Part shown: one piece after another, positions 2,581 through 42,198 of the stretch
How positions within the stretch are numbered: position 1 is the first letter of the stretch
Layout of the letters: every line of letters starts with the position of its first letter
Source: Bacteroidales bacterium
GTDB taxonomy: Bacteria; Bacteroidota; Bacteroidia; Bacteroidales; UBA10428
DNA: 64,000 bases
Direction: 5' to 3'
Assembly (NCBI GenBank): GCA_016929525.1
Contig: JAFGIP010000045.1
Coordinates: 9,152 to 73,151, forward strand
Position numbers and translations under genes: made by a program
Notes under the pieces: generated by a model
The model's database searches: none
Told to the model about the DNA's origin: nothing
What the model saw: only the letters and a program-made list of their open reading frames with translations

Positions 2581-4011
2581 TTACTTCAACCCGAATGCGT
2601 AATACTGAATCACCCCGTTGGGATATATTCCTTCAATATAAACTCCTCCATTAGTCCTTTTAATTGCGTTGCCCAGATCTTCAACGGAATAGATGGGTTT
2701 GTTATTGACTTGTGTAATTATAAAACCCTCTTTAACACCTTCTGCCCTTAGCTTTCCAGCCTTAAGTTCGACAACCTTTACACCGTTTTTAATACCCAGT
2801 TTTGTCTTCTCACTACCTGATACTTCTTCAAAGCGTGCACCAAGAATGCTGTCGAATGAGTCAGCTGATACGTAGCTCGTTTTCCCTTGCAGGTTACGTA
2901 AAGTCACTTCAAATTGTTTCATTTTACCATCTCTTTTTACAACAACGGTAACTATATCGTTAGGACGATAACGGCTGACCTGCTCCTGCAGTTCACCTGA
3001 ACTGTTGACATTAACTCCGTTTATCGATATAATCACATCTCCTTCTTTTATACCCGCTGCTTTTGCGGCACCGTCATCACGAACAGATGCAATATATACA
3101 CCTTCAATTTTATCAAGGTCCTTCTCTTTGGCAAGTTCAGCAGTAATATCCTGGATACTGACACCCAGAATTGCTCTCTGAACCACTCCAAATTCCTTCA
3201 GGTCCTTTACTACCTTAGCTACAATAGCGACCGGCACGGCAAAAGAAATACCTGCATATCCACCTGAAGGTGATATTATTGCGGTATTAATTCCCACAAG
3301 ATTTCCGTTTATATCAACCAATGCACCACCGCTGTTACCGCGATTTACAGCTGCATCAGTTTGTATAAACGATTCCATCCTGTACTGATCCTGGATGATA
3401 CCAATGTTTTTTGCCTTTGCACTTACTATGCCTGCAGTAACAGTCGACGTAAGATTGAACGGATTACCTACAGCCAGCACCCACTCACCAACCTGCAAAG
3501 AATCTGAATTTCCCCATGGAATATAATGCAAACCTTCAGCATCTACTTTTAATAATGCAAGATCGGTACTTGGATCGGTACCAATTACTTTTGCAGAGAA
3601 TTCACGCTTATCATTTAATGTCACATAAACTTTATCGCTTCCTTCCACAACATGATTATTGGTTACAATATATCCTTCGTCCGAGATAATAACTCCCGAA
3701 CCAAAACCCAGAACAGGTTGTGAATCGCGATAGCCATCACCATAAAAGAACTCCAGTATCGGATTATATGACTGTCTTGTTGACTGAGTCTTAACGTGGA
3801 CTACAGCCTCAACAGAATTTTGGGCTGCCCTTACAAAATTGAATGATGTAATATCTGTACCGGAAGGCATATTAGCAAAATTTATTGGCTGGGTAACGGT
3901 TGTGGTGACAACACGTTCCTCTCCGGGAAAAATCTTTGAGTATACAAATACAGCTATCAGCCCTCCTAATAGTGCGATTACAAATGTTCCTGCTGCTTTT
4001 TTCGTTTTCAT
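2581..4011 (-). CDS. htrA: HtrA/DegP/DegQ-family periplasmic serine protease with PDZ domains
   Basis: S1C catalytic contexts (TNNHVV, DLALLK, GNSGGALV) are followed by two PDZ-like segments. The longest ORF runs to 4071; the ATG at 4011 (MKTKKAAGTFVIALLGG) directly precedes the membrane anchor and is the more likely start. Confidence 0.9.
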   Translation of the reverse strand: MKTKKAAGTFVIALLGGLIAVFVYSKIFPGEERVVTTTVTQPINFANMPSGTDITSFNFVRAAQNSVEAVVHVKTQSTRQSYNPILEFFYGDGYRDSQPVLGFGSGVIISDEGYIVTNNHVVEGSDKVYVTLNDKREFSAKVIGTDPSTDLALLKVDAEGLHYIPWGNSDSLQVGEWVLAVGNPFNLTSTVTAGIVSAKAKNIGIIQDQYRMESFIQTDAAVNRGNSGGALVDINGNLVGINTAIISPSGGYAGISFAVPVAIVAKVVKDLKEFGVVQRAILGVSIQDITAELAKEKDLDKIEGVYIASVRDDGAAKAAGIKEGDVIISINGVNVNSSGELQEQVSRYRPNDIVTVVVKRDGKMKQFEVTLRNLQGKTSYVSADSFDSILGARFEEVSGSEKTKLGIKNGVKVVELKAGKLRAEGVKEGFIITQVNNKPIYSVEDLGNAIKRTNGGVYIEGIYPNGVIQYYAFGLK

Positions 4012-4164: not shown

Positions 4165-4956
4165 ATGAATTTTCAATTCTATAAATATCACGGCGCCGGC
4201 AACGATTTCATTGTAATAGATAACCGGGAAGACAGATTTCCTCAGTCTGACAATAAATTCATAGCCGGATTATGTCAAAGAAGATTCGGCATTGGTGCCA
4301 ACGGATTAATGTTATTGCATAATCATTCAAAGTATGATTTTGAAATGAAATACTATAATGCAGATGGTATGGAAGGCAGCTTATGCGGTAACGGAGGCCG
4401 GTGTATTGTAGCCTTTGCCCATAGACTTGGAATTATTGGTAATAAAACCGTTTTTTTAGCCATTGACGGAGAGCATCGGGCAGTTGTGGTTTATCATGAC
4501 TACATAAGACTTAAAATGAAAGATGTCAGTGAGATAGAAAAAGGTGATGATTATTTCTTCCTCGATACCGGTTCTCCTCATTATGTGACTTTTACCGAGA
4601 AGGTTAAAGAAAAAGATGTTTATAGTGCAGGTAAAGCAATAAGGTACAACGACAGGTTCCGGTCAGAAGGCACCAATGTAAATTTCGTTGAAAGATTGGA
4701 TGACAGTTTGTTTGTCAGAACTTATGAGCGGGGCGTTGAAGACGAAACACTTGCTTGCGGAACAGGGATTGTTGCTTCTGCCATATGTGCAGCAATCAAT
4801 GACAATACAGACATAAATTCTTATCATGTAAAAGCATTAGGAGGTGAACTGAAAGTCAATTTTAAAAGAAATGAAGAGAAAATTACCGATATATGGCTGG
4901 AAGGTCCGGCAGTAAAAGTATTTGAGGGAACGATTGAAACTGAAAGTCTGTGGTGA
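4165..4956 (+). CDS. dapF: Diaminopimelate epimerase
   Basis: YHGAGNDFIVIDN N-terminus, two catalytic Cys contexts (LCGNGGRC, LACGTG) and a typical 263-aa length. Confidence 0.9.
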   Translation: MNFQFYKYHGAGNDFIVIDNREDRFPQSDNKFIAGLCQRRFGIGANGLMLLHNHSKYDFEMKYYNADGMEGSLCGNGGRCIVAFAHRLGIIGNKTVFLAIDGEHRAVVVYHDYIRLKMKDVSEIEKGDDYFFLDTGSPHYVTFTEKVKEKDVYSAGKAIRYNDRFRSEGTNVNFVERLDDSLFVRTYERGVEDETLACGTGIVASAICAAINDNTDINSYHVKALGGELKVNFKRNEEKITDIWLEGPAVKVFEGTIETESLW

Positions 4957-5210: not shown

Positions 5211-7643
5211 ATGAAACCAAGAAGTTATTTATTAATCATTGTATTTACAGTTATCGCAATAATAACTGGTTATTCACAATCGGAAATCAACCTGAACTAT
5301 TTTGAATCTCACCAGGACCTTGGCGGTGAGATAAAACTTGTTAATACAGTTATAAAGGAAGAAGGAGGCATCACCTATCAGATTTTTAACATCCTCTCTT
5401 ATGATAATGGTAATTATTACGTGAATGCCTGGGTTATGGGTATTGAACTGGATTCGGAAGGAAGCGGGAAATTCCTGGAATACGATTACTATGTTAATGA
5501 TGTAAAGCAGGAAGAAAAACTTATCCCGGAAAAAAGTAACTGGCATAATGCTGCTATCAGGGATGTTAAGGGAAAAGAAAAAAAGTCATTTAAGCTCAAA
5601 AAAGGAATGAACCGGATTGCATTTTCCTGCCCTTCTCCCGAAGTTCCTGAAATTGAATTCATCAGGCTTTCAAAAAAACCCTCGGACTCAGAAATACCTG
5701 AAGACAATTATCTCCGGTTTATTGAAAATCTTCATCAGCATAGTACGGAAGAAAAAGGTGAAGTAATGGATGAAGAAGATACATACGCTACCAATAAAAA
5801 CATAAAAGATGAAGGGGATACGGTACCTCCCATGGATTATGTATACGTAAGCGATGTTAATTTCAAATACACCTATTTCAGATATTTTAACCTTGATGCA
5901 GGAGATTATATTCAGATTCATGCCACCGGATTAGGTTTATATTATTCAATTGAATTCTTCTCATTTGATAAACCCGAAAATTATAGTTATATCGCATATT
6001 CAAACCCCGGTTACATTGCAAACCTCAGTGTAACCATTCCGGAACATGGATACTATATATTAAAGATCACCGGCTCTGGTTATGGAGATTTTGTCAAGTA
6101 TATTTATAATATCAATTACGGCAGCGATCATTATGTAAACAAATGTGTTATCTCTAACACAGGATTCACATATCAACATTTTGCATATCAGACCTATAAT
6201 TATTTTACAACCAACTTAACTGGTGACAGTCATATGTGGATAACTGACAACGCCAACAAAATAAGGGCTCATAACGACAATTACCTTGGAAGTAACTCAT
6301 ACGACTGGAATTTAAATTCAAGATTGATATTAGATCCTCCTTTATCAATACGCAGAATTCAGATATCATCACATCTGAGTTACTGGCCTAGTGGAAAATG
6401 TGATCTTTATCTACAATGTCCTACTGTGGACCCATTTTATATTAACATATTCCCACAACTTGATACAAACGATGCAATAAAATCTGCCGACGGGGATGAA
6501 ATATACAATTGTGCCAGCTGGTCTCATGGAATATGGTGGAATAATTATTGGCCACCCAATTATACAGATCCTTATCATGATGACAGAGGTCCATTATATT
6601 CATTTGATAAGTTTTATTCAGATACTATTGGAAATATGATATATACCCGAACAGGAGCAAATGCTTCAAACAGTGTAATTGATTTGTGGTCAAATGATGG
6701 AGAATTTACTCATGCAACAGTTACTGAACCGGGTAATCATCATCTACACGGATATGACTTTGAAAGTAAGCATGGCAGCGGACAACGTTTTTTTCATCCT
6801 AGATTTGCTTTTGATAATTCTGTTTATGGCTTCGTTACACATTACTATATACCTGATCCTTCAGCAAAATCTACGATGTCGTATGGCGAATTATTAGCAA
6901 GAGGATTATCTGTAATTGAAAAAGTTGAACTTAATGACTCTGAGAAAAATTGCATTGAAAGATCTATTAATTCCTTGACACCAGTGCAATTATATGAGCT
7001 TGAGAAAAGATATAAAGCATGGAAGCTAACCTGGAAGAGACCTGAAATCGCCATTCACAGTAATCCAAGAATGTATGCAAAGAGTAAAGAGTACGATGAT
7101 TTTATTGATTATTGCAAATTGCAGGGAGAATCCGTATGGCCTTATGTTTTCAATACGTTTCTCGAAGGTGATTTTTATGTGATCAATGCTATTGAGGATT
7201 TAACCTTTGATGATCATATGGACAAACTCAGAAAAGTAAGAAATGAGTGTGAACTTAACCGTTATAATGAATCCGGGGCTTATATTATCAGATCAATGCG
7301 CAGTTATACAACAAGATATATATTAGAAATCCTTAAATCGAAATATACAATTACTGATGAAGAAACTAAAGTACAGTTTAATAATTCCTTTGATTTTGAT
7401 ATCTTTCCTAATCCTGTAAATTCAAACAGTATATTGTCATTCGATCTTGATACCAGTGCAAAAGTATCAGCACAGGTCCGGAATTTAAAAGGCAGGTTAA
7501 TATCAATTATTATTAACGAACAAATGTTAGATGCCGGCAGCAAGTACTATCCTATTAATTTATATGAGAACTATAAAGGAACTTATCTCGTAGAATTGAT
7601 TGTTAATGATATAGTTAATGTTAAGTTAATCGTAGTTCCGTAA
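5211..7643 (+). CDS. Secreted hypothetical protein with T9SS C-terminal sorting domain (810 aa)
   Basis: Signal peptide (MKPRSYLLIIVFTVIAIITGYSQ). The last ~75 aa fit the T9SS type A sorting-domain pattern (IFPNPVNSNSILSFDL...GTYLVELIVNDIVNVKLIVV). I could not recognise a domain in the rest of the protein. Confidence 0.8.
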   Translation: MKPRSYLLIIVFTVIAIITGYSQSEINLNYFESHQDLGGEIKLVNTVIKEEGGITYQIFNILSYDNGNYYVNAWVMGIELDSEGSGKFLEYDYYVNDVKQEEKLIPEKSNWHNAAIRDVKGKEKKSFKLKKGMNRIAFSCPSPEVPEIEFIRLSKKPSDSEIPEDNYLRFIENLHQHSTEEKGEVMDEEDTYATNKNIKDEGDTVPPMDYVYVSDVNFKYTYFRYFNLDAGDYIQIHATGLGLYYSIEFFSFDKPENYSYIAYSNPGYIANLSVTIPEHGYYILKITGSGYGDFVKYIYNINYGSDHYVNKCVISNTGFTYQHFAYQTYNYFTTNLTGDSHMWITDNANKIRAHNDNYLGSNSYDWNLNSRLILDPPLSIRRIQISSHLSYWPSGKCDLYLQCPTVDPFYINIFPQLDTNDAIKSADGDEIYNCASWSHGIWWNNYWPPNYTDPYHDDRGPLYSFDKFYSDTIGNMIYTRTGANASNSVIDLWSNDGEFTHATVTEPGNHHLHGYDFESKHGSGQRFFHPRFAFDNSVYGFVTHYYIPDPSAKSTMSYGELLARGLSVIEKVELNDSEKNCIERSINSLTPVQLYELEKRYKAWKLTWKRPEIAIHSNPRMYAKSKEYDDFIDYCKLQGESVWPYVFNTFLEGDFYVINAIEDLTFDDHMDKLRKVRNECELNRYNESGAYIIRSMRSYTTRYILEILKSKYTITDEETKVQFNNSFDFDIFPNPVNSNSILSFDLDTSAKVSAQVRNLKGRLISIIINEQMLDAGSKYYPINLYENYKGTYLVELIVNDIVNVKLIVVP

Positions 7644-7668: not shown

Positions 7669-9876
7669 ATGCATGATTCCTTAAAATATATAATAGTGAA
7701 AACAATAGTCTTTTACATATTGGTCAATTGCTTAATCCAGCCGTTAATAGCACAATCTCATACGTCATGGTTAAATTATACATTCAGCTTCAGGGTTACG
7801 GATATTGTTATACATGAGAATGATATCTGGATAAGCACTCAGGGTGGTCTGGTTAAGTATAATAAGTTAACAGGCGAAAAAGACTATTATAACCGCGCAA
7901 ATGTTAATTTACCGGATAATAATTTACTTGGTTTATTCTGTTCTGACAATGGTAATGTTTGGGTTACCGGAATGCGTTATGGTGTAGGAAAGTATACAGG
8001 TGAAGAATGCATCATCTATAATACATCAAATTCAGAACTTCCGTTTGATCAATGGAATACCAAAGTTAAAGAGGATAAAATTGGGAATGTATGGCTAATA
8101 TCAATGCGATGGATGGTTAAAATCAACGGTAGTGAATGGAAAACATGGGAAACAGGTAGTGAATTTTCTTCATTTCCTTTGATCACTGATTTCGATATTG
8201 ATAATGAAAACATTGTCTGGATGTTTTCCACCGACGGTATTGGTAAAATTGAAAACGATGAATATACGGTTATTAGTGATATTGGAAGCAGTTTAACAGC
8301 AAAAAACGGTTGTTTGAATGTTGATCCTGATCAAAATATCTGGATCGCGGTTGAGGATGAAGGATTGTATAAATACGACGGATCTGATTTTACCAATTAT
8401 TCAACCTCAAATTCCTGTTTATCCACTAATAAAATATCAGATATATCTTTTGATGCCGATAATAGAATGTGGCTGGCGACACAAGATGGATTGATAAATT
8501 TCAATATAACCGATTGCAGTGTTTATCAACCCCCGGGAAATGAAAAAAAATTACTTGCTTTGGAATGTAGTTTGGGTGATACTATCTGGTGTGGTACTTA
8601 TAGTGGTTACCTGTTATGCTTTGATGGTGATGATTTTACGAAAATAGAGATTTCTAATTCTCCGCTGAAATCCAACTATATTGTAGATATTCTGGCTCAG
8701 GATGAAAATAATATCTGGATCGGGACCGGCGAAAATCTTGTTAAAAAAACCGGTGATCAGTTTTTCACTGTTTATAATAAACAAGCTAATGGAATAGAAA
8801 AAGATAATGATGGGAAAATATGGATTGCATTTGCAGAAGGTGACACAAGCCTGCTCAAATTAGACGGTGAGGAAAGCCTGGTTTTTGATTCACTGAATTC
8901 TCCGTTTAATACTAATTACAATCCAATCCGGGACATTGTATTTGACAAAGACAACCAGATTTGGATTGCAACAGGTGTAAACGGCCTATTTTATTATAAC
9001 GGGATAAATTTTACAAATTATAACACGTCAAACAGCCCTATTCCCTCAACCGGTATATTTGAATTATTAATTGACAAGGAAAATGCTTTATGGGGAGGTA
9101 CTCTTAACGGATTGTTCAAATTTGATGGAGAAAACTGGAAGGTTTGGAATACTGCAAATTCAGACATACCTACGAATATTATACCTGGTTTAGCATTAGA
9201 TTCAGAAAACAAACTATGGTTTTCCTGCATGGATGAAAGAAGGAGAATAGCACCAGAATTAGGGGGAGGAATTGTATCTTTTGATGGCAAGCATATGACG
9301 GTTTATAACAGAGAAAATTCAGATCTAAGTTCTAATACGATCTTTGACATTTATATCGATAATAATGATGCTATATGGGTAACCACTTACTTTACCGGAA
9401 TTATGTGTTTTAGTCAGAAAAATCCATGGGGAATTAAAGCAAATCCGTGGATATCTTATTCCGTGTCTAATTCAGGCTTATCAGATAATGAACCAATTCT
9501 TATTAAAGGAGATATAAACGGCACTCTTTGGATTGGACATAGATATGAAGGAATATCGGTATTTAACCCTGATTCAAGTCTTCAGCCTGTAGCAATTAAC
9601 AATGAAATATATTCTTCTGCTACAGTTTTCCCAAATCCTGCGGGTAGTGAATTGTATATTCGTTTAGGTTCCATCCCTGAGACACCGCTCCGGATAACCA
9701 TATATGACATGAGCGGCAGGTTAATAGATAATATACCTGAAAGTGAGATCATGTATGATAATAATAATATAAGGCTTAACCTGGATCATTCTCATTACAC
9801 AAATCAGATTTACATAATCAACATAATAACCAGGGAGGGGCTTCACTATAGTTCGAAGTTTATATATCTCAAGTAA
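7669..9876 (+). CDS. Secreted beta-propeller protein (two-component-regulator-propeller-like repeats) with T9SS C-terminal sorting domain
   Basis: Many ~45-aa repeats have the N(I/V)W(I/V)(A/G)T..G(L/V)..(Y/F) signature. The C-terminus reads VFPNPAGSELYIRL...IYIINIITREGLHYSSKFIY. Confidence 0.8.
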   Translation: MHDSLKYIIVKTIVFYILVNCLIQPLIAQSHTSWLNYTFSFRVTDIVIHENDIWISTQGGLVKYNKLTGEKDYYNRANVNLPDNNLLGLFCSDNGNVWVTGMRYGVGKYTGEECIIYNTSNSELPFDQWNTKVKEDKIGNVWLISMRWMVKINGSEWKTWETGSEFSSFPLITDFDIDNENIVWMFSTDGIGKIENDEYTVISDIGSSLTAKNGCLNVDPDQNIWIAVEDEGLYKYDGSDFTNYSTSNSCLSTNKISDISFDADNRMWLATQDGLINFNITDCSVYQPPGNEKKLLALECSLGDTIWCGTYSGYLLCFDGDDFTKIEISNSPLKSNYIVDILAQDENNIWIGTGENLVKKTGDQFFTVYNKQANGIEKDNDGKIWIAFAEGDTSLLKLDGEESLVFDSLNSPFNTNYNPIRDIVFDKDNQIWIATGVNGLFYYNGINFTNYNTSNSPIPSTGIFELLIDKENALWGGTLNGLFKFDGENWKVWNTANSDIPTNIIPGLALDSENKLWFSCMDERRRIAPELGGGIVSFDGKHMTVYNRENSDLSSNTIFDIYIDNNDAIWVTTYFTGIMCFSQKNPWGIKANPWISYSVSNSGLSDNEPILIKGDINGTLWIGHRYEGISVFNPDSSLQPVAINNEIYSSATVFPNPAGSELYIRLGSIPETPLRITIYDMSGRLIDNIPESEIMYDNNNIRLNLDHSHYTNQIYIINIITREGLHYSSKFIYLK

Positions 9877-9904
9877 GCAGATCTTCCTTATAATATAGAA
9901 TAAA

Positions 9905-9935
9905 AAGAATTGTTATATAATAATTCTTGTTTTTA
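9905..9935 (+). terminator. AT-rich hairpin plus T-run after the 7669-9876 gene
   Basis: AAGAATTGTT (9905-9914) pairs with AATAATTCTT (9919-9928): 10 bp including one G-T, with a 4-nt loop. GTTTTT follows. Confidence 0.35.
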
Positions 9936-9955
9936 TAAATCTGAATAATTAAAAT

Positions 9956-10657
9956 CTAGATATATTTTGTAGCCTCTCTCCTGCTGAGTCCTGATAATTC
10001 ATGGTTTTCAACAAATCCGGCAACCCATGACGGGTCGGTTTTTGAATATTCGCGTAAAACCCAGCCTATCGCTTTACGAATAAAGAATTCCTTACTATCG
10101 ATAAGTAATTCGATATATCTTGCCAGTAAATCTGTGTTCGTTTCTTTTTTATATTTCAACTGAAATAAAAGCGCCGAACGTTGCAGCCACATATTATCCG
10201 ATTTTACCCAACTGTTTGTTACAGATTTTATCTGCTCTGGATATTTATTAAAATATGTCCCGCACAACCATGCAGCAATTCCGTCGACTGTATCCCACCA
10301 TGATTTACTGGTTATCATATATTCCAGTAACTGAATATCTTCTTTCTTTAGCAATTTCTTAAATTTCATAAGAATTTCTATTGCGGCATATTGAAATTCA
10401 CGTTCCGGAAGATTCCATAAGTACAGTGCACATGTATCAATTCCAGTTTCAGCAGGAGAAACATTATTTTTAAAAAAATCCTTTATAATACCTCTGAAAA
10501 TCTTTGCCTCTATCCCCAGGCATGTGAACTGATTCTTCAGATATTTCATTGACCAGGCAGCTCTGTCGGTATTTCCCGAGGCACGAATTTCCCTGATCAG
10601 CGGATCCAGGTATACTTTACACTCGTTAAGTTGCTTCCGGGTTAAAGACAGTTCCAA
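9956..10657 (-). CDS. DNA alkylation repair protein (AlkD/AlkC-like HEAT-repeat family)
   Basis: Family-typical motifs (SMKYLKNQF.CLGI, WWDTVD, FFIRKAIGWVLREYSKTDP) and a 233-aa length. The stop codon is TAG. Confidence 0.8.
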   Translation of the reverse strand: MELSLTRKQLNECKVYLDPLIREIRASGNTDRAAWSMKYLKNQFTCLGIEAKIFRGIIKDFFKNNVSPAETGIDTCALYLWNLPEREFQYAAIEILMKFKKLLKKEDIQLLEYMITSKSWWDTVDGIAAWLCGTYFNKYPEQIKSVTNSWVKSDNMWLQRSALLFQLKYKKETNTDLLARYIELLIDSKEFFIRKAIGWVLREYSKTDPSWVAGFVENHELSGLSRREATKYI

Positions 10658-34435: not shown

Positions 34436-37400
34436 TTAATCTTTCACACAGCGTACTGAGAAGCCATTAGTTCTTGTGCCATTCATTGTACTCGGATAAA
34501 ATCGATCTGTCAAATAATTAAGACCTGCATATCTGGAGTACATATAATCAAGTTCCTGTGAAGACCAATGGTAACCGTTTGTTCCCATATTATAAGAAGT
34601 ACCGTCACTATACCCTCTTACGCCACCAGGTAAACCTGTAAAACCGGTTTCATTTGTTGCCCCGGTATTTGGAGAAGTCCAATGAGTTGTTCCGATTTCT
34701 TTTAATTTACCCCCGGCAACTTCCTCTCCACCGAGAAAATCTGATAATTCAACCCACTCTGCACTGCTCGGAACATGCCATCCATTCGGGCATACACCCT
34801 GCACACCACTGGGATTAGCAGTGCTGCTGGATTCATCATTCATTACTGCAGCCCAAGTATATAGCAACCCATACGTTTCTTTATTTGCTATATCATCATT
34901 ATAAACAAACCAATATTTTGTCGTATAATCACCTGTTATACTTCCAACTCCTGTTCCGTCTACCAAAGGCGTTCCATCAGAATAATATGTTGTCTCCAGA
35001 TTTTCTGCCATCCACCACTGATTGCCGATTTTAACGGTATTATATACGTTGCCGTCGTAGTCGGTAACTGTACCTGTTGTGGCCCCTGATCCGGGATAAA
35101 CATGCACCGTGAACTCATCTTCCCAGCATAAATCCTCGGAATGTGCACAAATATATAGTGAAAATACTACATCTTTTTCCGGGCAGTCCTCAGAGACAGT
35201 AAATGTAAAACCGGGATTATTATCGGTAGTGCCCGCCATAATATCACCATAATATACTTCACCATCCTGGACTTCACTTATATATTCTACATACAGATCA
35301 TCGGTCGAATATATAACATCTACGTTATGTGCATCACCATCGCCGTTGTTGATCAGTGTAATGGTCATGTTAATAAATTCACCCGGCTCAACAAGACCGT
35401 CATTATCGCCATCGGAATCGTCAATTGAATGACTTAGGTATTCAATGACCGGGGTTGGAATTTCTTCCTCGTTTACCTGAACTGTTCTGGTTGTTTCATC
35501 AGTTAAACCTTCTGTATCTCTTACCTCCATTCTAACAGTATATGTTCCGTTAGTCGCATATTGATGATATTCAACCTTATTTGTTAACCAACCTGTATCC
35601 CAAATACCATTATTTTCCCAATCCCACCTTACCTGAAGTAATGATACAGGATCCTGGCCATCGCTGGATGCAGAAGCATCGAATCTGAAATTGGTTGTAG
35701 TTGTTCCGGATGAAGGATCAATGTAAAAATAAGCATCCGGTGCAGTATTTTCTTCATTTACCTGAACAGAACGTGTTGTCTCATCTGTTAAACCACCATT
35801 ATCTCTCACCTGCATCCTTACTGTATATGTTCCGGGAGTTGAATATTGATGATACGTAACTTTATTTGTTGAAAACCCGGTATCCCAGCTTCCATTATTC
35901 TCCCAGTCCCATCTAACCTGTAGCACAGACACAAGATCCTGGCTGTCGCTGCATCCGGAGGCATCGAACCTGAAATTTGTTGCTGTTGTACCGGAGGAAG
36001 GATCAACGTAGAAATCAGCATCCGGTGGCGTATTTATTTCATTTACCTGTACCGAACGTGTTGTCTCATCTGTTAATCCACCACTATCTCTTACCTGCAT
36101 CCTCACTGTATATGTTCCGGGAGTTGAATATTGATGATACGTAACTTTATTTGTTGAAAATCCTGTATTCCAACTCCCATTGTTTTCCCAGTCCCACCTC
36201 ACCTGCAGCGCTGATACAGGATCCTGGCTGTCGCTGCAATCAGAGGCATCAAATCTGAAATTTGTTGCCGTGGTACCAGATGAAGGATCAACGTAGAAAT
36301 CAGCATCCGGTGCAGTATTCAGATATCCCTCATCTTCTGCAATGATTTGCTCCCACCTTGCCAGATTCATCGGAGGAGGCATAGGTAAACTATATCCTAA
36401 TATCTCAGCCTCTATTCCAACGTTGGCATCCACTCCACCAGCTAATAACCAATGCCAGTACAGCTCAGATAGTTCAACTTCACCAGCAAATCGTAAATAT
36501 GGTTCAAGTTCCAAATAAGGACCAACAACTTCATAAAATGTGACGCTTATTCTTGGTGCAACATAAGCCCTGGCTGCAACATCTCCATGTAAATCCCAAT
36601 CTGGTTCATGCATATTAAAGTCACTCCTTTGCTCCCAAATAGGCTGCCATTCATCCCTTCTGTTATAATAATAATCAATACCAACTTCTAACGACTGAGT
36701 TGCATCAAATCCAGTCGTGAAACTCCCATTAATATCAAGTGATGTTTCAAATCCTACAAAAAGCTTGAGTTCAATTACCATTACAAAAATTCCAATGGGA
36801 ATAGGATAGGTATTTTTATAAACCATTCTTTCGCGTGAATACTCCAGCGGATAATCACATAATAATTCCAAATCACAATCAAAATAGAGTTCACCTTCTG
36901 CTGAAAGCATAAATTCATATAAAAAAGGTGGAAAAATTCCTATATCCAGTTTACGATGTATTGTAGGTGTGAATTGAATCAAACCATTCTTAATCCTTGC
37001 ATTTAGACTAATTCCTTCAACATTACCAGAGTATAATTCAAAGTTTGAAAGACTGATTGATATCGGATCAAATTGAGTGCTTTCTTCATACTTACTGTTT
37101 CTTTTAATACTTGCTCCTTCAGCTAAATAATCTATTCTTGACGGGAAGATATTACTGGCTGCTGATGTTGGATATTCATCATTTCCAAATAGTGCGATAG
37201 AATCAATTATAGTACCGTCTTCAATAAGATCCGTCAGTCTTCCTTGTGCAGTAAAAAGAATCACTTGATCTCCATCTTGCACAATATGAATAATAATTCT
37301 TAAATAACCCCCATTGTCATAATTGACAAGCACCTGCCCTACTTCAAAATCATCAATGTCAGCATTTTCATATATATAAAGTCCATCAGCAAGTTCCAGC

Positions 37401-37804
37401 GAATCGCTCACTAGTGTTATCACATTTGTATCAACAACAAATACATTACGTTTGTATTTAATAACATTCACATTCGCAGTGTCTGAGTTGTATGCCGGGC
37501 AACCGCTTACTGTAACACGGGCTTTATAATAAGCAGAGCTGTCCGCAACAACATAAATCGTGTCGTTTGTGGCACCTTCAATATCTGTCCAGTTAACAAG
37601 GTCATAAGACTTTTGCCACTGAATATTGCCAAAATAGTCCCTGAGCTCTATCATAATGGTATCACCTTTATTCACTGTTTCATCCGGACCATAATATACA
37701 GCCTGTGAATAGGTTTCGACACAAAATAAAGAGAGGATAAAAACAAAGAATAAGTTTATTCGAAAGTTTGTATCTTTTTTATTCAATAATGATTTTGCTG
37801 ACAT
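34436..37804 (-). CDS. Large secreted protein: novel N-terminal region, 3 PKD domains, Ig-like/CARDB-like region, C-terminal FISUMP (Fibrobacter succinogenes major paralogous) domain
   Basis: Signal peptide. Three 95-aa PKD-type repeats (FYVDPSSGTTATNFRFDAS...YTVRMQVRD). The C-terminus fits the FISUMP pattern (DYDGNVYNTVKIGNQWWMAENL...CPNGWHVPSSAEW...GGKLK...GFSVRCVKD). Confidence 0.85.
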   Translation of the reverse strand: MSAKSLLNKKDTNFRINLFFVFILSLFCVETYSQAVYYGPDETVNKGDTIMIELRDYFGNIQWQKSYDLVNWTDIEGATNDTIYVVADSSAYYKARVTVSGCPAYNSDTANVNVIKYKRNVFVVDTNVITLVSDSLELADGLYIYENADIDDFEVGQVLVNYDNGGYLRIIIHIVQDGDQVILFTAQGRLTDLIEDGTIIDSIALFGNDEYPTSAASNIFPSRIDYLAEGASIKRNSKYEESTQFDPISISLSNFELYSGNVEGISLNARIKNGLIQFTPTIHRKLDIGIFPPFLYEFMLSAEGELYFDCDLELLCDYPLEYSRERMVYKNTYPIPIGIFVMVIELKLFVGFETSLDINGSFTTGFDATQSLEVGIDYYYNRRDEWQPIWEQRSDFNMHEPDWDLHGDVAARAYVAPRISVTFYEVVGPYLELEPYLRFAGEVELSELYWHWLLAGGVDANVGIEAEILGYSLPMPPPMNLARWEQIIAEDEGYLNTAPDADFYVDPSSGTTATNFRFDASDCSDSQDPVSALQVRWDWENNGSWNTGFSTNKVTYHQYSTPGTYTVRMQVRDSGGLTDETTRSVQVNEINTPPDADFYVDPSSGTTATNFRFDASGCSDSQDLVSVLQVRWDWENNGSWDTGFSTNKVTYHQYSTPGTYTVRMQVRDNGGLTDETTRSVQVNEENTAPDAYFYIDPSSGTTTTNFRFDASASSDGQDPVSLLQVRWDWENNGIWDTGWLTNKVEYHQYATNGTYTVRMEVRDTEGLTDETTRTVQVNEEEIPTPVIEYLSHSIDDSDGDNDGLVEPGEFINMTITLINNGDGDAHNVDVIYSTDDLYVEYISEVQDGEVYYGDIMAGTTDNNPGFTFTVSEDCPEKDVVFSLYICAHSEDLCWEDEFTVHVYPGSGATTGTVTDYDGNVYNTVKIGNQWWMAENLETTYYSDGTPLVDGTGVGSITGDYTTKYWFVYNDDIANKETYGLLYTWAAVMNDESSSTANPSGVQGVCPNGWHVPSSAEWVELSDFLGGEEVAGGKLKEIGTTHWTSPNTGATNETGFTGLPGGVRGYSDGTSYNMGTNGYHWSSQELDYMYSRYAGLNYLTDRFYPSTMNGTRTNGFSVRCVKD
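35465..36319 (-). repeat. Three tandem 285-bp coding repeats (PKD modules) inside the 34436-37804 gene
   Basis: Unit boundaries are at 36319, 36034, 35749 and 35465 (the Asn codon of the NT(A/P)PDA motif recurs every 285 nt). Units 1 and 2 share long identical stretches such as ACTGTATATGTTCCGGGAGTTGAATATTGATGATACGTAACTTTATTTGTTGAAAA. Confidence 0.9.
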
Positions 37805-38162
37805 AATGGGCTTTTTCGTTGTAAATTATTAGCAGGTAAACACCTTTACGGTCGCTTAAATTTATTTCCTGTATCCTGTTTTCTTTATTGAAAAATAGTT
37901 GTTGGTCAAGAACTGTTGCACCTGAGATCTCAATGACTTTTAAGTTTAGTTCATTAATATTCCCATCAACTTCAATCGAAAACATTCCGCGGTTCGGGTT
38001 TGGATATACCTTTACTTCGGTTTCGAGAAATGTATTTTCAATATTGGTTATACAGTCGTTAATGCCGGTTTGATCAATCTCAAGGATAATATGCTTATCC
38101 TGTGACATTAAACTACAGCTTAACATAAGCACGATAAATATTATAATTACTCTCATTTTCAA
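37779..38162 (-). CDS. Small secreted protein that is essentially a signal peptide plus a T9SS C-terminal sorting domain (127 aa)
   Basis: MKMRVIIIFIVLMLSCSLMSQ signal. The tail fits the T9SS type A sorting domain (VKVYPNPNRGMFSIEVDG...IEISGATVLDQ...GVYLLIIYNEKAHYVSKIIIE). Its 3' end overlaps the start of the downstream 1122-aa gene by 26 nt. Confidence 0.7.
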   Translation of the reverse strand: MKMRVIIIFIVLMLSCSLMSQDKHIILEIDQTGINDCITNIENTFLETEVKVYPNPNRGMFSIEVDGNINELNLKVIEISGATVLDQQLFFNKENRIQEINLSDRKGVYLLIIYNEKAHYVSKIIIE

Positions 38163-38336
38163 TGATTTTGAGGCAAATTATAATTTAATAAATCTAAAGT
38201 CAAGATATTTTTGACTAATTAAATTAATAAGATTTCATATTGCACGTATTTATTTATAAACAAGCCGGTTAACAACTATATGAGGATCACTAATGTGATT
38301 ATACAGATTTTTAGACGCAACCTGATATTACTTATT

Positions 38337-38504
38337 TCACAAATGATATCGCGTAACTCACAAATGATATCGCGTAATTCACAAATGATATTGCTTCTTT
38401 TACAAATGATATCGCTTCTTTCATAAGCGACATTGGAAATTTTATAAGTGACGCTGCATGTTCCAACAAGGATGTTGCGAATTTCAAGAATGATATCTGA
38501 CGAC
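38337..38504. repeat. Eight degenerate 21-bp tandem direct repeats
   Basis: The units in order are TCACAAATGATATCGCGTAAC, TCACAAATGATATCGCGTAAT, TCACAAATGATATTGCTTCTT, TTACAAATGATATCGCTTCTT, TCATAAGCGACATTGGAAATT, TTATAAGTGACGCTGCATGTT, CCAACAAGGATGTTGCGAATT and TCAAGAATGATATCTGACGAC. The phase is exactly 21 nt, and similarity decays towards the hairpin array. Confidence 0.85.
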
Positions 38505-38743
38505 CCAACTCGCGCGCTTTTATAAAGCGTGCGGTATCTATTATATACTTATTTAAAATGATCAGAACTATAAACCAACTCGCGCGCTTTTATAAAGCGT
38601 GCGGAATCTATTGTATAAGTAATAGTGTCAGTTGCCCTATACCCAACTCGCGCGCTTTTATAAAGCGTGCGAAATCTATTGTATAAGTACTATTGTCAGT
38701 TGCCCTATACCCAACCCACGCGCTTTTATAAAGCGTGCGGTAT
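38504..38743. repeat. Array of four ~68-bp units, each with a GC-rich hairpin (REP-like), abutting the 3' end of the RAYT-type gene
   Basis: The hairpin CGCGCGCTTTTATAAAGCGTGCG occurs at 38511-38533, 38581-38603 and 38649-38671, with the variant CACGCGC... at 38717-38739. Each is preceded by CCCAAC(T/C)C and followed by ATCTATT. Confidence 0.9.
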
Positions 38744-39292
38744 CTATTTAACGAGTACTATTGGCAGATGGCCAATACCGCCAGCATAGTTTATGGCAGA
38801 TGAATATTTGTAATCTTCTTCGTTTACTACCAATTCTTCGGTTACAGGATTTTCGTGGATGTAATTAAGTTTTTGTTCGAGAATTTCTCTTGTTGTCAAT
38901 TCAATAGGATGAAATCCGTCTTTCCATATCTTATAATTTTGACCTCTTTTAATCCGGTTAGCAGCAAAGGCAAATTTCTTTAACAACCATTCCCTTCTGC
39001 TTTCCGGATATTCGTTTATGGCTGTAATGAACTTCTTTGCTGTAAATTTCTTGAAGTCTCTGATTGTATTTGCCAATCTGAAGTTTTCACCTGAACTGAC
39101 GATTAGATGAATATGATTTGACATGATTACATAGGCATATATAACTAATTCTTTATTATGTATACAATGTTCCAATGATTCAATAATAATATGTTTATAA
39201 ACCGGTCTAGTAAAAAGATCTACACAGTTTATTGTAGTACACGTAATAAAATATAATCCTTCAGGGTTTCTGACTTTGTATTTTTCTGACAT
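38744..39292 (-). CDS. IS200-like HUH/Y1 transposase family protein, REP-associated tyrosine transposase (RAYT)-type
   Basis: HUH motif in SNHIHLIV and a catalytic-Tyr context LNYIHENPV near the C-terminus, with a ~180-aa size. The likely start is ATG at 39292 (MSEKYKVRNPEGLYFITCTT); the longest ORF extends to 39409. Hairpin repeats flank it. Confidence 0.8.
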   Translation of the reverse strand: MSEKYKVRNPEGLYFITCTTINCVDLFTRPVYKHIIIESLEHCIHNKELVIYAYVIMSNHIHLIVSSGENFRLANTIRDFKKFTAKKFITAINEYPESRREWLLKKFAFAANRIKRGQNYKIWKDGFHPIELTTREILEQKLNYIHENPVTEELVVNEEDYKYSSAINYAGGIGHLPIVLVK

Positions 39293-39455
39293 TAACGAAT
39301 TTAATCCTTGACAAATGTAAATGTTTCGGATTACAAATCCTATGTTATTGTTGTCAAATAACAGACTGGCACACTTAACATAAGCGCGCCAGTGGATAAA
39401 CTTCATCATTCAAACTTTGCCAAACCCCTGCCTGCATTTTTATAATAAGTTCCGT

Positions 39456-40640
39456 TTAAACAGAAGGTTTCCTGAACCTTATTCCAAAGTCCATATAGGT
39501 TAATGCCCGCCATACCCATTCTAAAGGTCCATAATAAAATTTCTTATTCCAGTAATCGCTGAAGACTGCCTGCAATGTGAAGATCATTAATCCGAGAATC
39601 AGGCTCCATGTCGATCCGAGGTATTTGTATAATGCAAACCCGTAACCGTAAAAAATAATAACACCAAGAACTGCCTGAAAGATATAGTTCGACAAGCTCA
39701 TTTTACCATAAGCGGCAAAAAGCCTGAAAATATAAGCATTTTGAAATTTCAGGTATATCAGAATAATCAATGTAGTTATAACAGATGTGATCGCGAGATT
39801 GGAATAAGAAGTCAAAATAGTACTTATTAGCGATAATTGCAGTCGGGTATATGAACTGTCTGTAAAGAACTTTCCTGAATAATAAAACACAAAAAACAGA
39901 ACAATACTAATTACCAACACTTTAAATAAAGATCGCTTATAATCTGATATCTTTTCAAAAACCCGGGTTCTTCCCAGGATCATACCCACTATAAAAAGTG
40001 TAATAAGCTGCAGGTATCTGCCGTTATAAATAGTCCATGCCCACACAGAGATCCTGCCTTTCCAGAAATTATATTTTACAACATCAACAAAATTCCCCGT
40101 TGCATACACATTGTTACCTTCTGCCCAGTACTGGGGAATTTTGTTTGCATATTCATATTCAGGTACACTGAATGACCTGATCAAATGATAAATCATTGGT
40201 ATTTGCAGAACAAGAAGAACGGAAATGCAAAGCAAAATTTTTGTATTCACCCTGTAGATGAATAATAACGGTATTGCCAGCAGCGCATATATGTGTAAAA
40301 TATCACCCCTGTATATTAATGAGTGAATAAACCCCATCAACAGCAATATTGTTAACCTCCAGATAAACCTTCCCATAAAATTGACCCCTTCGTTCTTTTT
40401 TCGATCCATCTGGATGAAAAAGCTAAATCCGAATAACAATGCGAAAATGGAATATGCTTTACCGCTTATTATAATGAAGATCCACTCCATAACCCTGTTG
40501 TCGGTTTCCTGCGAAAAGAGGAAGTTTATTTCGGGATTCATAAAGAAATCGAAGTGTTCTACGTAATGAATTAATACAATTAATAATAGTGCGAATCCGC
40601 GCAGGGTATCTACAATTAAAATTCTTCCGGTTTTATTCAT
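39456..40640 (-). CDS. DUF418 (YeiB-like) family integral membrane protein
   Basis: N-terminal RILIVDTLRGFALLLIVLIH, multiple TM helices, and the C-terminal family signature GPLEWVWRALTY. Confidence 0.8.
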   Translation of the reverse strand: MNKTGRILIVDTLRGFALLLIVLIHYVEHFDFFMNPEINFLFSQETDNRVMEWIFIIISGKAYSIFALLFGFSFFIQMDRKKNEGVNFMGRFIWRLTILLLMGFIHSLIYRGDILHIYALLAIPLLFIYRVNTKILLCISVLLVLQIPMIYHLIRSFSVPEYEYANKIPQYWAEGNNVYATGNFVDVVKYNFWKGRISVWAWTIYNGRYLQLITLFIVGMILGRTRVFEKISDYKRSLFKVLVISIVLFFVFYYSGKFFTDSSYTRLQLSLISTILTSYSNLAITSVITTLIILIYLKFQNAYIFRLFAAYGKMSLSNYIFQAVLGVIIFYGYGFALYKYLGSTWSLILGLMIFTLQAVFSDYWNKKFYYGPLEWVWRALTYMDFGIRFRKPSV

Positions 40641-40790
40641 TTCCTGAAACTGAGATTTGTGAATTGATTATCATGAGTCTTTTGGCGTTTAATTGAAGGT
40701 TGTTAAAATAATAACATCATAGAAATTATTAAAATATATAATTGCGAAAATCAGTTGTTTCAAAATAATATTTGTTCTGCAGGCGATCAC

Positions 40791-40920
40791 TTAACCCGCG
40801 CGCTTTTATAAAGCGTGCGGAATCTACTGTATAAGTACTAGTGTCAGTTGCCCTATACCCAACTCGCGCGCTTTTATAAAGCGTGCGGAATCTATTGTAT
40901 ACTTATTTATAATGACCAAA
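40791..40920. repeat. Two further REP-like hairpin units, same orientation as the 38504-38743 array
   Basis: The hairpin CGCGCGCTTTTATAAAGCGTGCG occurs at 40797-40819 and 40865-40887. The first unit's tail, CTGTATAAGTACTAGTGTCAGTTGCCCTATA, matches the tails at 38611-38640 and 38681-38709. Confidence 0.9.
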
Positions 40921-41143
40921 ATTGCAAATCCTTGCACATTGCTGTAATCAGTAAATTAGTCACGCATCATTCAACTTCGCTAGCACTTTCACTAAAAGTT
41001 ACAGTGCTCAAGGAAAGCTTCGTTGAACAAAGAATGCACGCCAGTGGGAATTTCGTCTTTACGGGATTAACATTTATTTACCTGTTAACAAAATTTAAAG
41101 GACAACGAACCCAACTATTTATTACCTTTGATGCACTTAAATT

Positions 41144-41491
41144 ATGAGAGCATTAGCGCTGATATTATTTGTATTCCTTTTCTATCTGGGTAATTCTTAC
41201 GAATATTTTCAGGTCAATTTCGGTTTGGATTATAGTCTGGACAATTCCGAAATACCCTCAGAATTATTCTTCAATGTAACCAAAAGTGAGTTATGTGAAT
41301 ATCACCTTCAGGAAGGAACATTGAGTAACCCGGAGAAGGATGATAACATAGATAAGTCTGTTGTTCAGATATCACACCGCTGTTATCTTTTTAATATTCA
41401 TAGTAAGATCTTTGATCTTACCGATCTTTCAGATAATTACTTACAACATCTATCATTTCTTTTATTAGATCTGCCTCCACCATTGATTTAG
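41144..41491 (+). CDS. Hypothetical small protein with N-terminal hydrophobic segment (115 aa)
   Basis: ORF only, with N-terminus MRALALILFVFLFYLG. No recognisable domain. Confidence 0.4.
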   Translation: MRALALILFVFLFYLGNSYEYFQVNFGLDYSLDNSEIPSELFFNVTKSELCEYHLQEGTLSNPEKDDNIDKSVVQISHRCYLFNIHSKIFDLTDLSDNYLQHLSFLLLDLPPPLI

Positions 41492-41589
41492 AAATAACAG
41501 TCCTGCTAATAAAGTTACATTAACATTTTTTACAACAATATTCCTTTAGTAAATATTGTTATTACAATATAACGGTATATAAATTTATT

Positions 41590-42198
41590 ATGATGACTAG
41601 AAATTTAAAGGATTTAACAGACAAAGAACTTGAATCATTAATAAATGATGAGAAAGAAGATTTCGGGTTACGCAAAGATGCTTTGCAGTACATAAAAAAA
41701 GCCGAAATAATCTACAAAATCGCTGAAACCTCTGAAAATGACTGGATCAGGCTTGAAGCAGCCACACTATCAAATAATCGAAAAGTACTTAAAAACCTTG
41801 AACTAAATCAGGATAAACAAATAAAACTACAGGCTGCTGTTGAACTTAAAGATCAGGAAATGCTTAAACAAATTGCCGAGGACAGATCGGAAGATGTAAA
41901 TAGTATTATCGCCCTGAATAATATTTCTGATAAAAACACGCTTGAAAAAATAGCATTAAACGGTGCCAGCGATAAAATAAGGACAGAGGCCGCCATCAGG
42001 GTCAGAGATACAAAAATTATTAAGAAGCTGGCGACCGAAATTCATAATGACTGGCTAAGATATAAACTATGTCTTTATGTAAATGATTTAGGTCCGTTGC
42101 AAGAGTTGGCAAATTCAACAAGCGACAAGCGGCTTCAATCCATTATTAATGAAATACTTGAAGTAATTAACCCTGCAAATGAAGAGGATATCGATTAA
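41590..42198 (+). CDS. Hypothetical alpha-helical repeat protein (HEAT/PBS-lyase-like repeats)
   Basis: About five ~30-aa repeats of the pattern (D/N)..(I/V)R..AA......(L/I)..(I/L)A (DWIRLEAATL, QIKLQAAVEL, DKIRTEAAIRV and others). Confidence 0.55.
   Translation: MMTRNLKDLTDKELESLINDEKEDFGLRKDALQYIKKAEIIYKIAETSENDWIRLEAATLSNNRKVLKNLELNQDKQIKLQAAVELKDQEMLKQIAEDRSEDVNSIIALNNISDKNTLEKIALNGASDKIRTEAAIRVRDTKIIKKLATEIHNDWLRYKLCLYVNDLGPLQELANSTSDKRLQSIINEILEVINPANEEDID

Follow-up and report, generated by a model that had tools for sequence, protein, structure and literature searches.

Does a lone transposase-like gene beside GC-rich hairpins in a member of the Bacteroidota represent a REPtron, that is, a gene for a REP-associated tyrosine transposase (RAYT) placed between its cognate repetitive extragenic palindromes (REPs)? 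The question is raised by a 2.5-kb locus on contig JAFGIP010000045.1 (assembly GCA_016929525.1) of a Bacteroidales bacterium, from which a stretch of 64,000 nt was analyzed (hereafter, the window; coordinates are positions within it). An initial annotation described there an HUH/Y1 RAYT-like gene with REP-like hairpins. This description is now supported by protein models, the predicted fold, an architecture conserved among related loci, and covariation in the hairpin stem. The locus is probably a REPtron of the subclass 2.6 type (RAYT Group 5) together with its cognate REPs, the class being assigned by host phylum, motifs, protein length, and hairpin design.

The start of the RAYT gene has been set by its homologues, all of which begin with MSxKYK, giving an open reading frame (ORF) at 38744-39292 on the minus strand that encodes 182 aa. 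The protein passes the Pfam model Y1_Tnp (PF01797), as the initial annotation anticipated, with 33.7 bits against a gathering cut-off (GA) of 23, and also the NCBIfam model NF047646, "REP-associated tyrosine transposase" (98.3 bits, cut-off 80), while it stays below the cut-off of the IS200/IS605 equivalog NF033573 (23.3 versus 55). Across 33 homologues, the two histidines of the HUH motif (H60 and H62), the tyrosine Y144 within YIHENP, one Trp, and a C-terminal SS are invariant; the position of the WQ signature is split between K and Q. A search of the Protein Data Bank (PDB) with the single RAYT sequence returned no match, and a profile of the homologues found as its best match 4ER8, the E. 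coli TnpA_REP (E 5e-6). The AlphaFold2 model (predicted local distance difference test, pLDDT, 90.2) has 4ER8_A as its top Foldseek match (E 2.8e-8, template modelling (TM) scores 0.65/0.71), an entry described as "REP associated tyrosine transposase bound to a REP hairpin", and the structures of ISDra2 and IS608 TnpA rank lower. The family is large, with more than 3,200 matches, nearly all of about 180 aa, and most homologue clusters at 90% identity occur on one or two contigs. Their sources are labelled Bacteroidales, Bacteroidota, or Cytophagia, in line with the Bacteroidota-type context proposed initially. The gene is present in one copy within the 64 kb, and the cultured Saccharicrinis sp. 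156 carries an orthologue 65% identical to it (locus L045; related loci are given L numbers below).

The hairpin itself is a 23-mer, CGCGCGCTTTTATAAAGCGTGCG, found in the window in six copies starting at 38511, 38581, 38649, 38717, 40797, and 40865. All lie on the plus strand, exactly as annotated before, and none is expected by chance (100 shuffles). The copy at 38717 has one mismatch (CACGCGC) and lies, as had been noted, 4 nt from the stop codon of the 182-aa ORF bearing NHIH and YIHENP. The first four copies form a tandem array with a 68-bp period over 38503-38779 (Tandem Repeats Finder), and the copies at 40797 and 40865 are likewise spaced by 68 bp. It had also been remarked that the hairpin stands out from an AT-rich background, and indeed the GC content is 37% in the window and about 35% in the spacers flanking the hairpins, with six of the seven GCGCGC hexamers in the 64 kb located within hairpins; the seventh (30309) was inspected and lies inside a long ORF with no hairpin. 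As single-stranded DNA (ssDNA), the plus strand reaches -10.7 kcal/mol (z -4.6), with 10 bp in its stem and 3 nt in its loop, and the complementary strand folds at -8.2 kcal/mol, since the G·T wobble of the stem turns there into an A·C mismatch. A covariance model built from 59 REP sequences, all of them copies from other genomes, scores the two strands at about 50 and about 10 bits. Applied to the whole window with no filters, it yields exactly seven significant matches, namely, the six known copies (30-51 bits) and one at 39358-39396 on the minus strand (33.6 bits, E 3e-9). The features of the locus are as follows.

38504-38573, plus strand: unit u1, with a REP hairpin at 38511-38533 and a B-type tail; 87% identical to u6; 50.2 bits with the covariance model.
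38574-38641, plus strand: unit u2, with a REP hairpin at 38581-38603 and an A-type tail whose reverse complement reads GIGQLTLLLIQ*, a relic of a RAYT C-terminus.
38642-38709, plus strand: unit u3, with a REP hairpin at 38649-38671 and an A-type tail (GIGQLTIVLIQ*).
38717-38739, plus strand: u4, the right-end REP, antisense to the RAYT gene and 4 nt past its stop codon; its 3' tail is the genuine end of the RAYT gene.
38744-39292, minus strand: RAYT (TnpA_REP) gene, 182 aa, with HUH (NHIH) and the catalytic Tyr (YIHENP).
39328-39340, minus strand: palindromic box GGATTTGTAATCC, located in the leader that separates the upstream REP from the ATG.
39367-39392, minus strand: left-end REP (hairpin 39368-39390), sense to the RAYT gene, CT-GGCGCGCTTATGTTAAGTGTGCC-A, diverged.
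39456-40640: DUF418 gene, between the RAYT gene and the two right-hand copies.
40790-40857, plus strand: unit u5, with a REP hairpin at 40797-40819 and an A-type tail (GIGQLTLVLIQ*), upstream of the DUF418 gene.
40858-40925, plus strand: unit u6, with a REP hairpin at 40865-40887 and a B-type tail.
40888-40990, minus strand: relic of a RAYT leader, with the 3' half of a left-end REP, TGATGCGTGACTAATTTACTG (40949-40969), and the box GGATTTGCAAT (40921-40931).

The seventh match changes the reading of the arrangement. All copies had been taken as direct, with no inverted pairs around the gene; in fact, a diverged inverted copy (39368-39390, minus strand) ends 75 nt before the RAYT ATG, and therefore the gene has the classical inverted flank. 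This REP differs from the G-type consensus at four positions and folds on the minus strand only (-6.4 kcal/mol, z -3.5). The gene had been described as bracketed by the plus-strand copies, and these do lie on both sides of it; the right-hand pair, in turn, is situated beyond the DUF418 gene, so that two genes are enclosed and not one. This DUF418/YeiB-like gene has no conserved counterpart as a neighbour at other loci and is treated as a bystander.

Is the same arrangement maintained elsewhere? Sixteen RAYT loci were compared, seven of which (L005, L006, L007, L041, L042, L043, and L045 from Saccharicrinis sp. 156; 59-77% identity) had been chosen by protein similarity alone and nine came from DNA pattern scans and so share the stem by construction. 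In 15 of the 16, a sense REP precedes the ATG by 43-142 nt, and in 12 an antisense REP is found 2-5 nt past the stop codon, the distance being exactly 4 nt in nine of these. All seven protein-selected loci have the antisense REP after the stop, and six of them show in the scan a sense REP within 142 nt upstream; the upstream REP of the seventh, L042, which contains a nested hairpin, was found by eye only. The 75-nt distance of the left-end REP in the window is comparable with 71 nt in L001, 74 nt in L006, and 81 nt in L045. The left copy has a closing pair G-C and the right copy C-G in L025, L031, L007, and the window, i.e., G-C-closed and C-G-closed copies are two REP subtypes. Between the left REP and the gene, about 28 nt downstream of the former and about 35 nt upstream of the ATG, lies the palindromic box GGATTTGTAATCC, which is kept in the leaders of L007, L041, and L043 and in the relic at 40921-40931; this box may serve RAYT expression as an operator or as part of a promoter.

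Several of these loci have peculiarities of their own. In L042, an extra hairpin, TCCCGAAATTTCGGGA, is nested in the loop of the upstream REP (about 610-660). L007 (880-1010 and 1730-1860), as well as L008, has a module of about 130 nt (agtcccagcgcggcg...gcaatgacgt) attached to antisense REPs; in L007, it occurs on both sides of the RAYT gene, which is therefore bracketed there too by same-orientation REPs. L001 and L045 bear antisense REPs also upstream of the left REP. The arrangement is altered in L044 (Roseivirga sp. 4D4, 9640-10640), whose protein is about 59% identical: here the REP beyond the gene has the sense orientation and starts 48 nt past the stop, and hairpins of another type, GGTCCGCACTGCAAGTGCGAACC, which resemble the inner stem of the REP, occur on both sides.

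Comparison of the hairpins reveals which parts are held constant. The outer stem, [C/G]GCGCGC...GCGTGC[G/C], is identical among related loci, while the inner stem-loop differs and covaries (TTT-TAT-AAA, TTT-TGC-AAA, AT-CTGTG-AT, ATT-TAT-AAT, and ACT-TGT-AGT). In 19 REPs, 96.8% of the stem cells are paired, compared with 82.3% in column shuffles, none of 500 of which reached the observed value, and both-sided changes occur in five of the ten stem pairs. Eighteen of the 19 retain the G·T wobble, located at pair 4-20. At the foot of the hairpin, position -1 is T in 56 of 58 copies and position -2 is C or A in 57, giving CT in 42 and AT in 15. The stem is followed on its 3' side by a tail resembling GAATCTAT, which in right-hand copies holds the complement of the RAYT stop codon. 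The REP thus defined is about 33 nt long and consists of the CT foot, the 23-nt hairpin, and an AATCTAT tail. The right REP of L043 is a perfect palindrome with G-C in place of G·T. A scan of 37500-42000 against Rfam (E <= 1) gave two chance-level matches (E 0.65 and 0.9), neither of them at the hairpin.

With hairpins directly beside both gene ends, the locus might also be taken for an autonomous insertion sequence (IS) of the IS200/IS605 type (IS608, ISDra2), in which an active Y1 transposase would mobilize the whole gene and the hairpins would be its ends. There are resemblances: the enzyme is a Y1 HUH protein with the fold common to IS608 and ISDra2 TnpA, the imperfect hairpins are subterminal, the right one abuts the stop codon, and the genes surrounding loci at 60-77% protein identity are not conserved. 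IS200/IS605 ends are, however, direct on the active strand, as in IS608, whereas the flanking hairpins here are inverted. Moreover, the protein scores 23.3 against the IS200/IS605 equivalog cut-off of 55 while passing the REP-transposase model, its best structural match is TnpA_REP, no tnpB is present, the window has a single gene copy, and most homologue clusters are seen on one or two contigs. An autonomous IS is therefore regarded as highly improbable.

Another possibility is that the hairpins primarily serve the host as terminators, insulators, or mRNA-stabilizing 3' structures, the RAYT gene being incidental. REPs have been reported to terminate transcription and to stabilize mRNA (background in PMC6006769), and a terminator scan flags four of the plus-strand copies and the upstream REP (6 sites versus 1.7 expected), the latter being located 63 nt past the DUF418 stop codon on the DUF418 strand. 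At the same time, the T-run is weak (5/8), the strand does not suit the flanking genes, AGTTGGG and not T comes after the downstream hairpin on the RAYT coding strand, and termination needs no four tandem copies. A regulatory function would also fail to account for the conserved foot (CT) and wobble (G·T) and for the strict tie to RAYT ends across genomes. A primarily regulatory role is thus unlikely, and termination would be at most a secondary, co-opted function of the REPs.

If the element is the REP, what are the 68-bp units, which the initial annotation regarded as long repeat units? Past a shared tail of about 14 nt, u2, u3, and u5 read in reverse complement as GIGQLT(I/L)(V/L)LIQ*, with the stop codon in frame and placed as in the GIGHLPIVLVK* of the resident gene. 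Close RAYT relatives terminate in GIGQL.... Each of these units is therefore a right REP together with the last 11 RAYT codons, so that the 68-bp unit proves to combine a REP of about 33 nt with a remnant of the RAYT 3' end, the whole having been duplicated in tandem. The three units are 91-94% identical to one another and 79-82% identical to the resident gene end; u1 and u6 have a common B tail instead. The array was also considered as a CRISPR (clustered regularly interspaced short palindromic repeats) array and rejected as such, for its 45-nt "spacers" are themselves repeated (91-94% identity in u2, u3, and u5).

How the units arose is less certain than their association with the gene. Even if the gene-hairpin link is real, u1-u3, u5, and u6 might have originated from enzyme-independent slippage or unequal recombination of the 68-bp block, also between arrays. 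The strictly head-to-tail order with the 68-bp period and the 91-94% identity of u2, u3, and u5 would fit this origin, as would the approximately 38 nt of flanking gene sequence carried by the units, which is typical of segmental duplication, and the similar duplications of gene end plus REP in L043 and L001. Against this, the A-type unit u5 lies 2 kb off, across two genes, and the A-tail relic GIGQL... is nearer to the C-termini of related RAYTs than to the resident GIGHLP..., which suggests import from another allele and not simple local slippage; in addition, it is specifically the REP-proximal gene end that has been duplicated, repeatedly and in independent lineages. On balance, construction of the array by the enzyme is somewhat favoured, and slippage or recombination is considered the less probable origin, albeit a serious one. 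No single rearrangement history was found to explain the order B-A-A-gene / A-B.

Duplications of this sort are seen in other genomes. In L043 (about 3400-3500), a second copy of the last approximately 60 nt of the RAYT gene plus REP lies 220 nt downstream of the first, an independent duplication of the same kind as the 68-bp units of the window. In L001 (OY969556.1, a complete 4.47-Mb chromosome; 4340-4830 and 5499-6841), the 3' end of a 267-aa upstream gene is duplicated along with REPs, and the RAYT gene is followed by repeat blocks of about 600 bp in which more antisense REP variants occur. In L002, a solo REP retains a relic of a RAYT C-terminus (GLHILANIL) and is adjoined by a HigB/HigA pair; L002 also contains other short repeats at 4290-4620, namely, cccactggcgcgattctgtgaatcgt twice and a 56-nt unit twice.

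The right-hand end of the locus has a further component. Read on the minus strand, the tail of u6 runs into the box GGATTTGCAAT and then into the 3' half of a left-type REP, TGATGCGTGACTAATTTACTG, amounting to a decayed eighth copy near 40949-40990. Local alignments of 40888-40990 with the RAYT leaders of L007 and L041 score 32 and 35, compared with a mean of about 17 (sd about 2.5, maximum 25) in 300 shuffles. Because of this similarity to RAYT leaders, and since the relic directly adjoins the last codons and the REP of u6, the segment 40865-40990 looks, on sequence grounds, like a REPtron minus its gene, i.e., a decayed REPIN-like doublet.

Some other repeats adjoin the locus or lie nearby. 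Immediately before u1, at 38320-38503, a 21-nt sequence, TCACAAATGATATCGCGTAAC, is repeated in tandem about eight times, the right half of the array being degenerate; it was sought in the 45 fetched loci with no match and could represent protein-binding iterons or a heptad-coding relic. Farther away, at 35465-36319, a 285-bp sequence is repeated three times in tandem (83% matches) within an ORF of 1122 aa (34436-37804, minus strand), where it encodes domain repeats, and a small ORF adjoining the latter (37779-38162, minus strand) encodes a C-terminal sorting domain of the type IX secretion system (T9SS).

Does the hairpin also occur away from RAYT genes? The exact 21-mer was searched for in 185,579 reference genomes, a collection that excludes the source metagenome-assembled genome (MAG), with a pattern that misses loop variants; three of the four loci it detected are not beside an intact RAYT gene. 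A metagenome scan with a degenerate loop produced 32 loci. Nine of them were discarded as chance matches in GC-rich coding DNA (loops such as CCG, GAG, and CAG, no CT foot), leaving 23 genuine ones, seven with a RAYT gene (L023 by a partial match only) and 16 with none within the contig. RAYT-less copies lie mostly between ORFs, and in L022 and L037 no RAYT gene occurs over more than 6 kb of flank to one side or to both. In L010, L026, L033, and L036, a G-type and a C-type copy form tail-to-tail inverted doublets 19-90 nt apart, the layout of a REPtron from which the gene has been removed. In relatives, the hairpin is thus dispersed, with solo and doublet copies on contigs with no detected RAYT. 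Loci lacking RAYT outnumber those with it by about two to one, and hits are few in all, which suggests, as far as biased short contigs can indicate, a few copies per genome and not hundreds.

The closest parallel in the literature is found among the TnpA_Y1 proteins classified by Quentin, Siguier, Chandler & Fichant 2018 (PMC6006769). According to that paper, subclass 2.6 contains the 40 Group 5 RAYTs of Bertels et al. 2017, occurs mostly in Bacteroidetes, is characterized by NH[LIV]H, WQ, YIH[QN]NP, and SS in proteins whose median length is 179 aa, and is flanked by "atypical" hairpins devoid of GT[AG]G. The locus under study fits this description in its Bacteroidetes host, the 182-aa length, NHIH, YIHxNP, and the C-terminal SS, flanking hairpins that likewise lack GT[AG]G, and a low gene copy number. 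Group 5 genes are flanked by moderately abundant 16-mers, about 31 per replicon (Bertels et al. 2017, PMC5581495). The hairpins in Table S1 of Quentin 2018, among them GCTGGCGCGAGCATATGCTCGTGCC (Spirosoma), GCTAGCGCTCGTATTTTACGAGTGC (Zobellia), and GCTGCCGCGCGGCTGTGCCGCGTGTGC (Owenweeksia), share with that of the window, by eye, the CT foot, [G/C]GCGC...GTGC[C/G], and a G·T pair near the foot, as seen in GCT-GGCGCGAGC-ATAT-GCTCGTGCC of Spirosoma and GCTA-GCGCTCGTA-TTT-TACGAGTGC of Zobellia. Hence the suggestion that the repeats of this RAYT-like family had yet to be defined does not hold, hairpins of the same design having been given for subclass 2.6 / Group 5 in that table. In comparison with that description, the hairpin of the window has its own inner stem and loop, TTT-TAT-AAA, and its RAYT has WK in place of WQ and YIHENP in place of YIH[QN]NP, as do its closest relatives. 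The available part of the paper makes no mention of 68-bp units with RAYT relics or of a gene-less remnant such as those in the window.

The E. coli REPtron (4ER8; Ton-Hoang 2012; Messing 2012; Corneloup 2021, PMC8266576) resembles the locus in the HUH/Y1 fold, being its best PDB match by both profile and structure, in having a single-copy gene between inverted REPs (here, one copy in 64 kb), and in an imperfect palindrome whose irregularity distinguishes the strands. On the other hand, sequence identity is about 18%, the window has no GTAG guide tetranucleotide but a CT or AT dinucleotide abutting the stem, and the irregularity is a G·T wobble and not the A12A13/G26C27 bulge; hundreds of dispersed copies are not in evidence for the hairpin of the window. 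The REPINs of Pseudomonas (Bertels & Rainey 2011, PMC3116915) find their likeness in the tail-to-tail doublets of the four contigs with no detected RAYT and in the decayed doublet at 40865-40990, yet the doublets here pair two REP subtypes (closing G-C versus C-G) and appear low in abundance, and the copies in the window are mostly direct tandem repeats.

Several observations weigh against regarding the locus as a REPtron with its cognate REPs. The canonical 5' GT[AG]G guide is absent from the hairpin foot in the 58 copies examined for it, and no activity assay of any member was found in the literature on subclass 2.6. Independent evidence of stem conservation comes only from the protein-selected loci. 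The left-end REP is decayed, with two G·T pairs and six differences from the downstream copies, and may no longer be a substrate. Over the whole 64-kb window, the covariance model detects no copy beyond the 2.5-kb locus; the exact 21-mer is rare, amounting to four loci in three MAGs among the reference genomes, with one match in a complete 4.47-Mb chromosome. These figures therefore give no sign of the high-copy dispersal that typifies classical REPs.

How such a REPtron might work can be proposed by analogy with the Proteobacterial enzymes (Corneloup 2021, PMC8266576), for which strand-specific recognition via stem irregularities or loop bases and cleavage usually at CT have been described; binding, cleavage, the parts that foot and wobble play, and the enzymatic origin of tandem growth are all proposed in this sense. 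A single domesticated HUH/Y1 ssDNA endonuclease-ligase gene is set between two inverted cognate REPs, the left one in sense, 75 nt before the ATG, and the right one antisense, 4 nt past the stop; the RAYT stop codon sits inside the conserved 3' tail of the right REP. The REP comprises a CT (sometimes AT) foot, a 10-bp stem [C/G]GCGCG...CGTGC[G/C] with the fixed G·T, a small A/T-rich loop, and an AATCTAT-like tail. By analogy with E. coli TnpA_REP, the enzyme would bind only the folded top strand, the strands being presumably discriminated by the conversion of G·T to an A·C mismatch on the other strand; the unequal fold energies and covariance-model scores of the two strands are the data in favour of such strand specificity. 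Cutting and rejoining of ssDNA near the hairpin would then copy REPs locally and, rarely, elsewhere. The additional copies in the window would be products of the locus, with u2, u3, and u5 corresponding to the right REP plus the last 11 RAYT codons, and u6 together with the relic at 40888-40990 would be a REPtron that lost its gene.

A bolder interpretation combines two suppositions: that this Bacteroidota clade has an unstudied recognition logic (no GTAG, a CT foot, a fixed G·T) and that the window preserves intermediates of REP birth. Under the former, the CT abutting the stem may possibly be the cleavage site itself, CT being the usual cleavage dinucleotide of TnpA_REP; the fixed G·T wobble would be the strand-discriminating irregularity, and the right REP encloses the stop codon, with a spacing of 4 nt that hardly varies. 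Under the latter, the units with the last 11 RAYT codons and the gene-less REPtron, giving rise to a REPIN-like doublet, may be such intermediates. The two taken jointly are doubtful. If true, the window would show directly how REPINs derive from REPtron ends, and the hairpin would be under selection beyond the fast enzyme-repeat co-evolution seen in Proteobacteria, because the outer stem is unchanged among RAYTs that are only about 50-75% identical.

The arrangement was already described for the Bacteroidetes RAYT branch in 2018, so the locus is a further member whose local details are descriptive, and the current picture of REP/RAYT systems is unchanged by it. Nevertheless, it provides a clean, well-resolved example for a RAYT subclass that has manual hairpin annotations only and no biochemistry. 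It gives a testable definition of the REP of this subclass, which has left and right variants and is marked by a CT foot, a G·T wobble, and a conserved stop-containing tail, and the cultured Saccharicrinis sp. 156, which carries the same hairpin, offers an experimental organism. Finally, the way in which a REPtron generates REPs and REPINs is hinted at, modestly but tangibly, by the relics of RAYT ends and by the remnant that lacks a gene.

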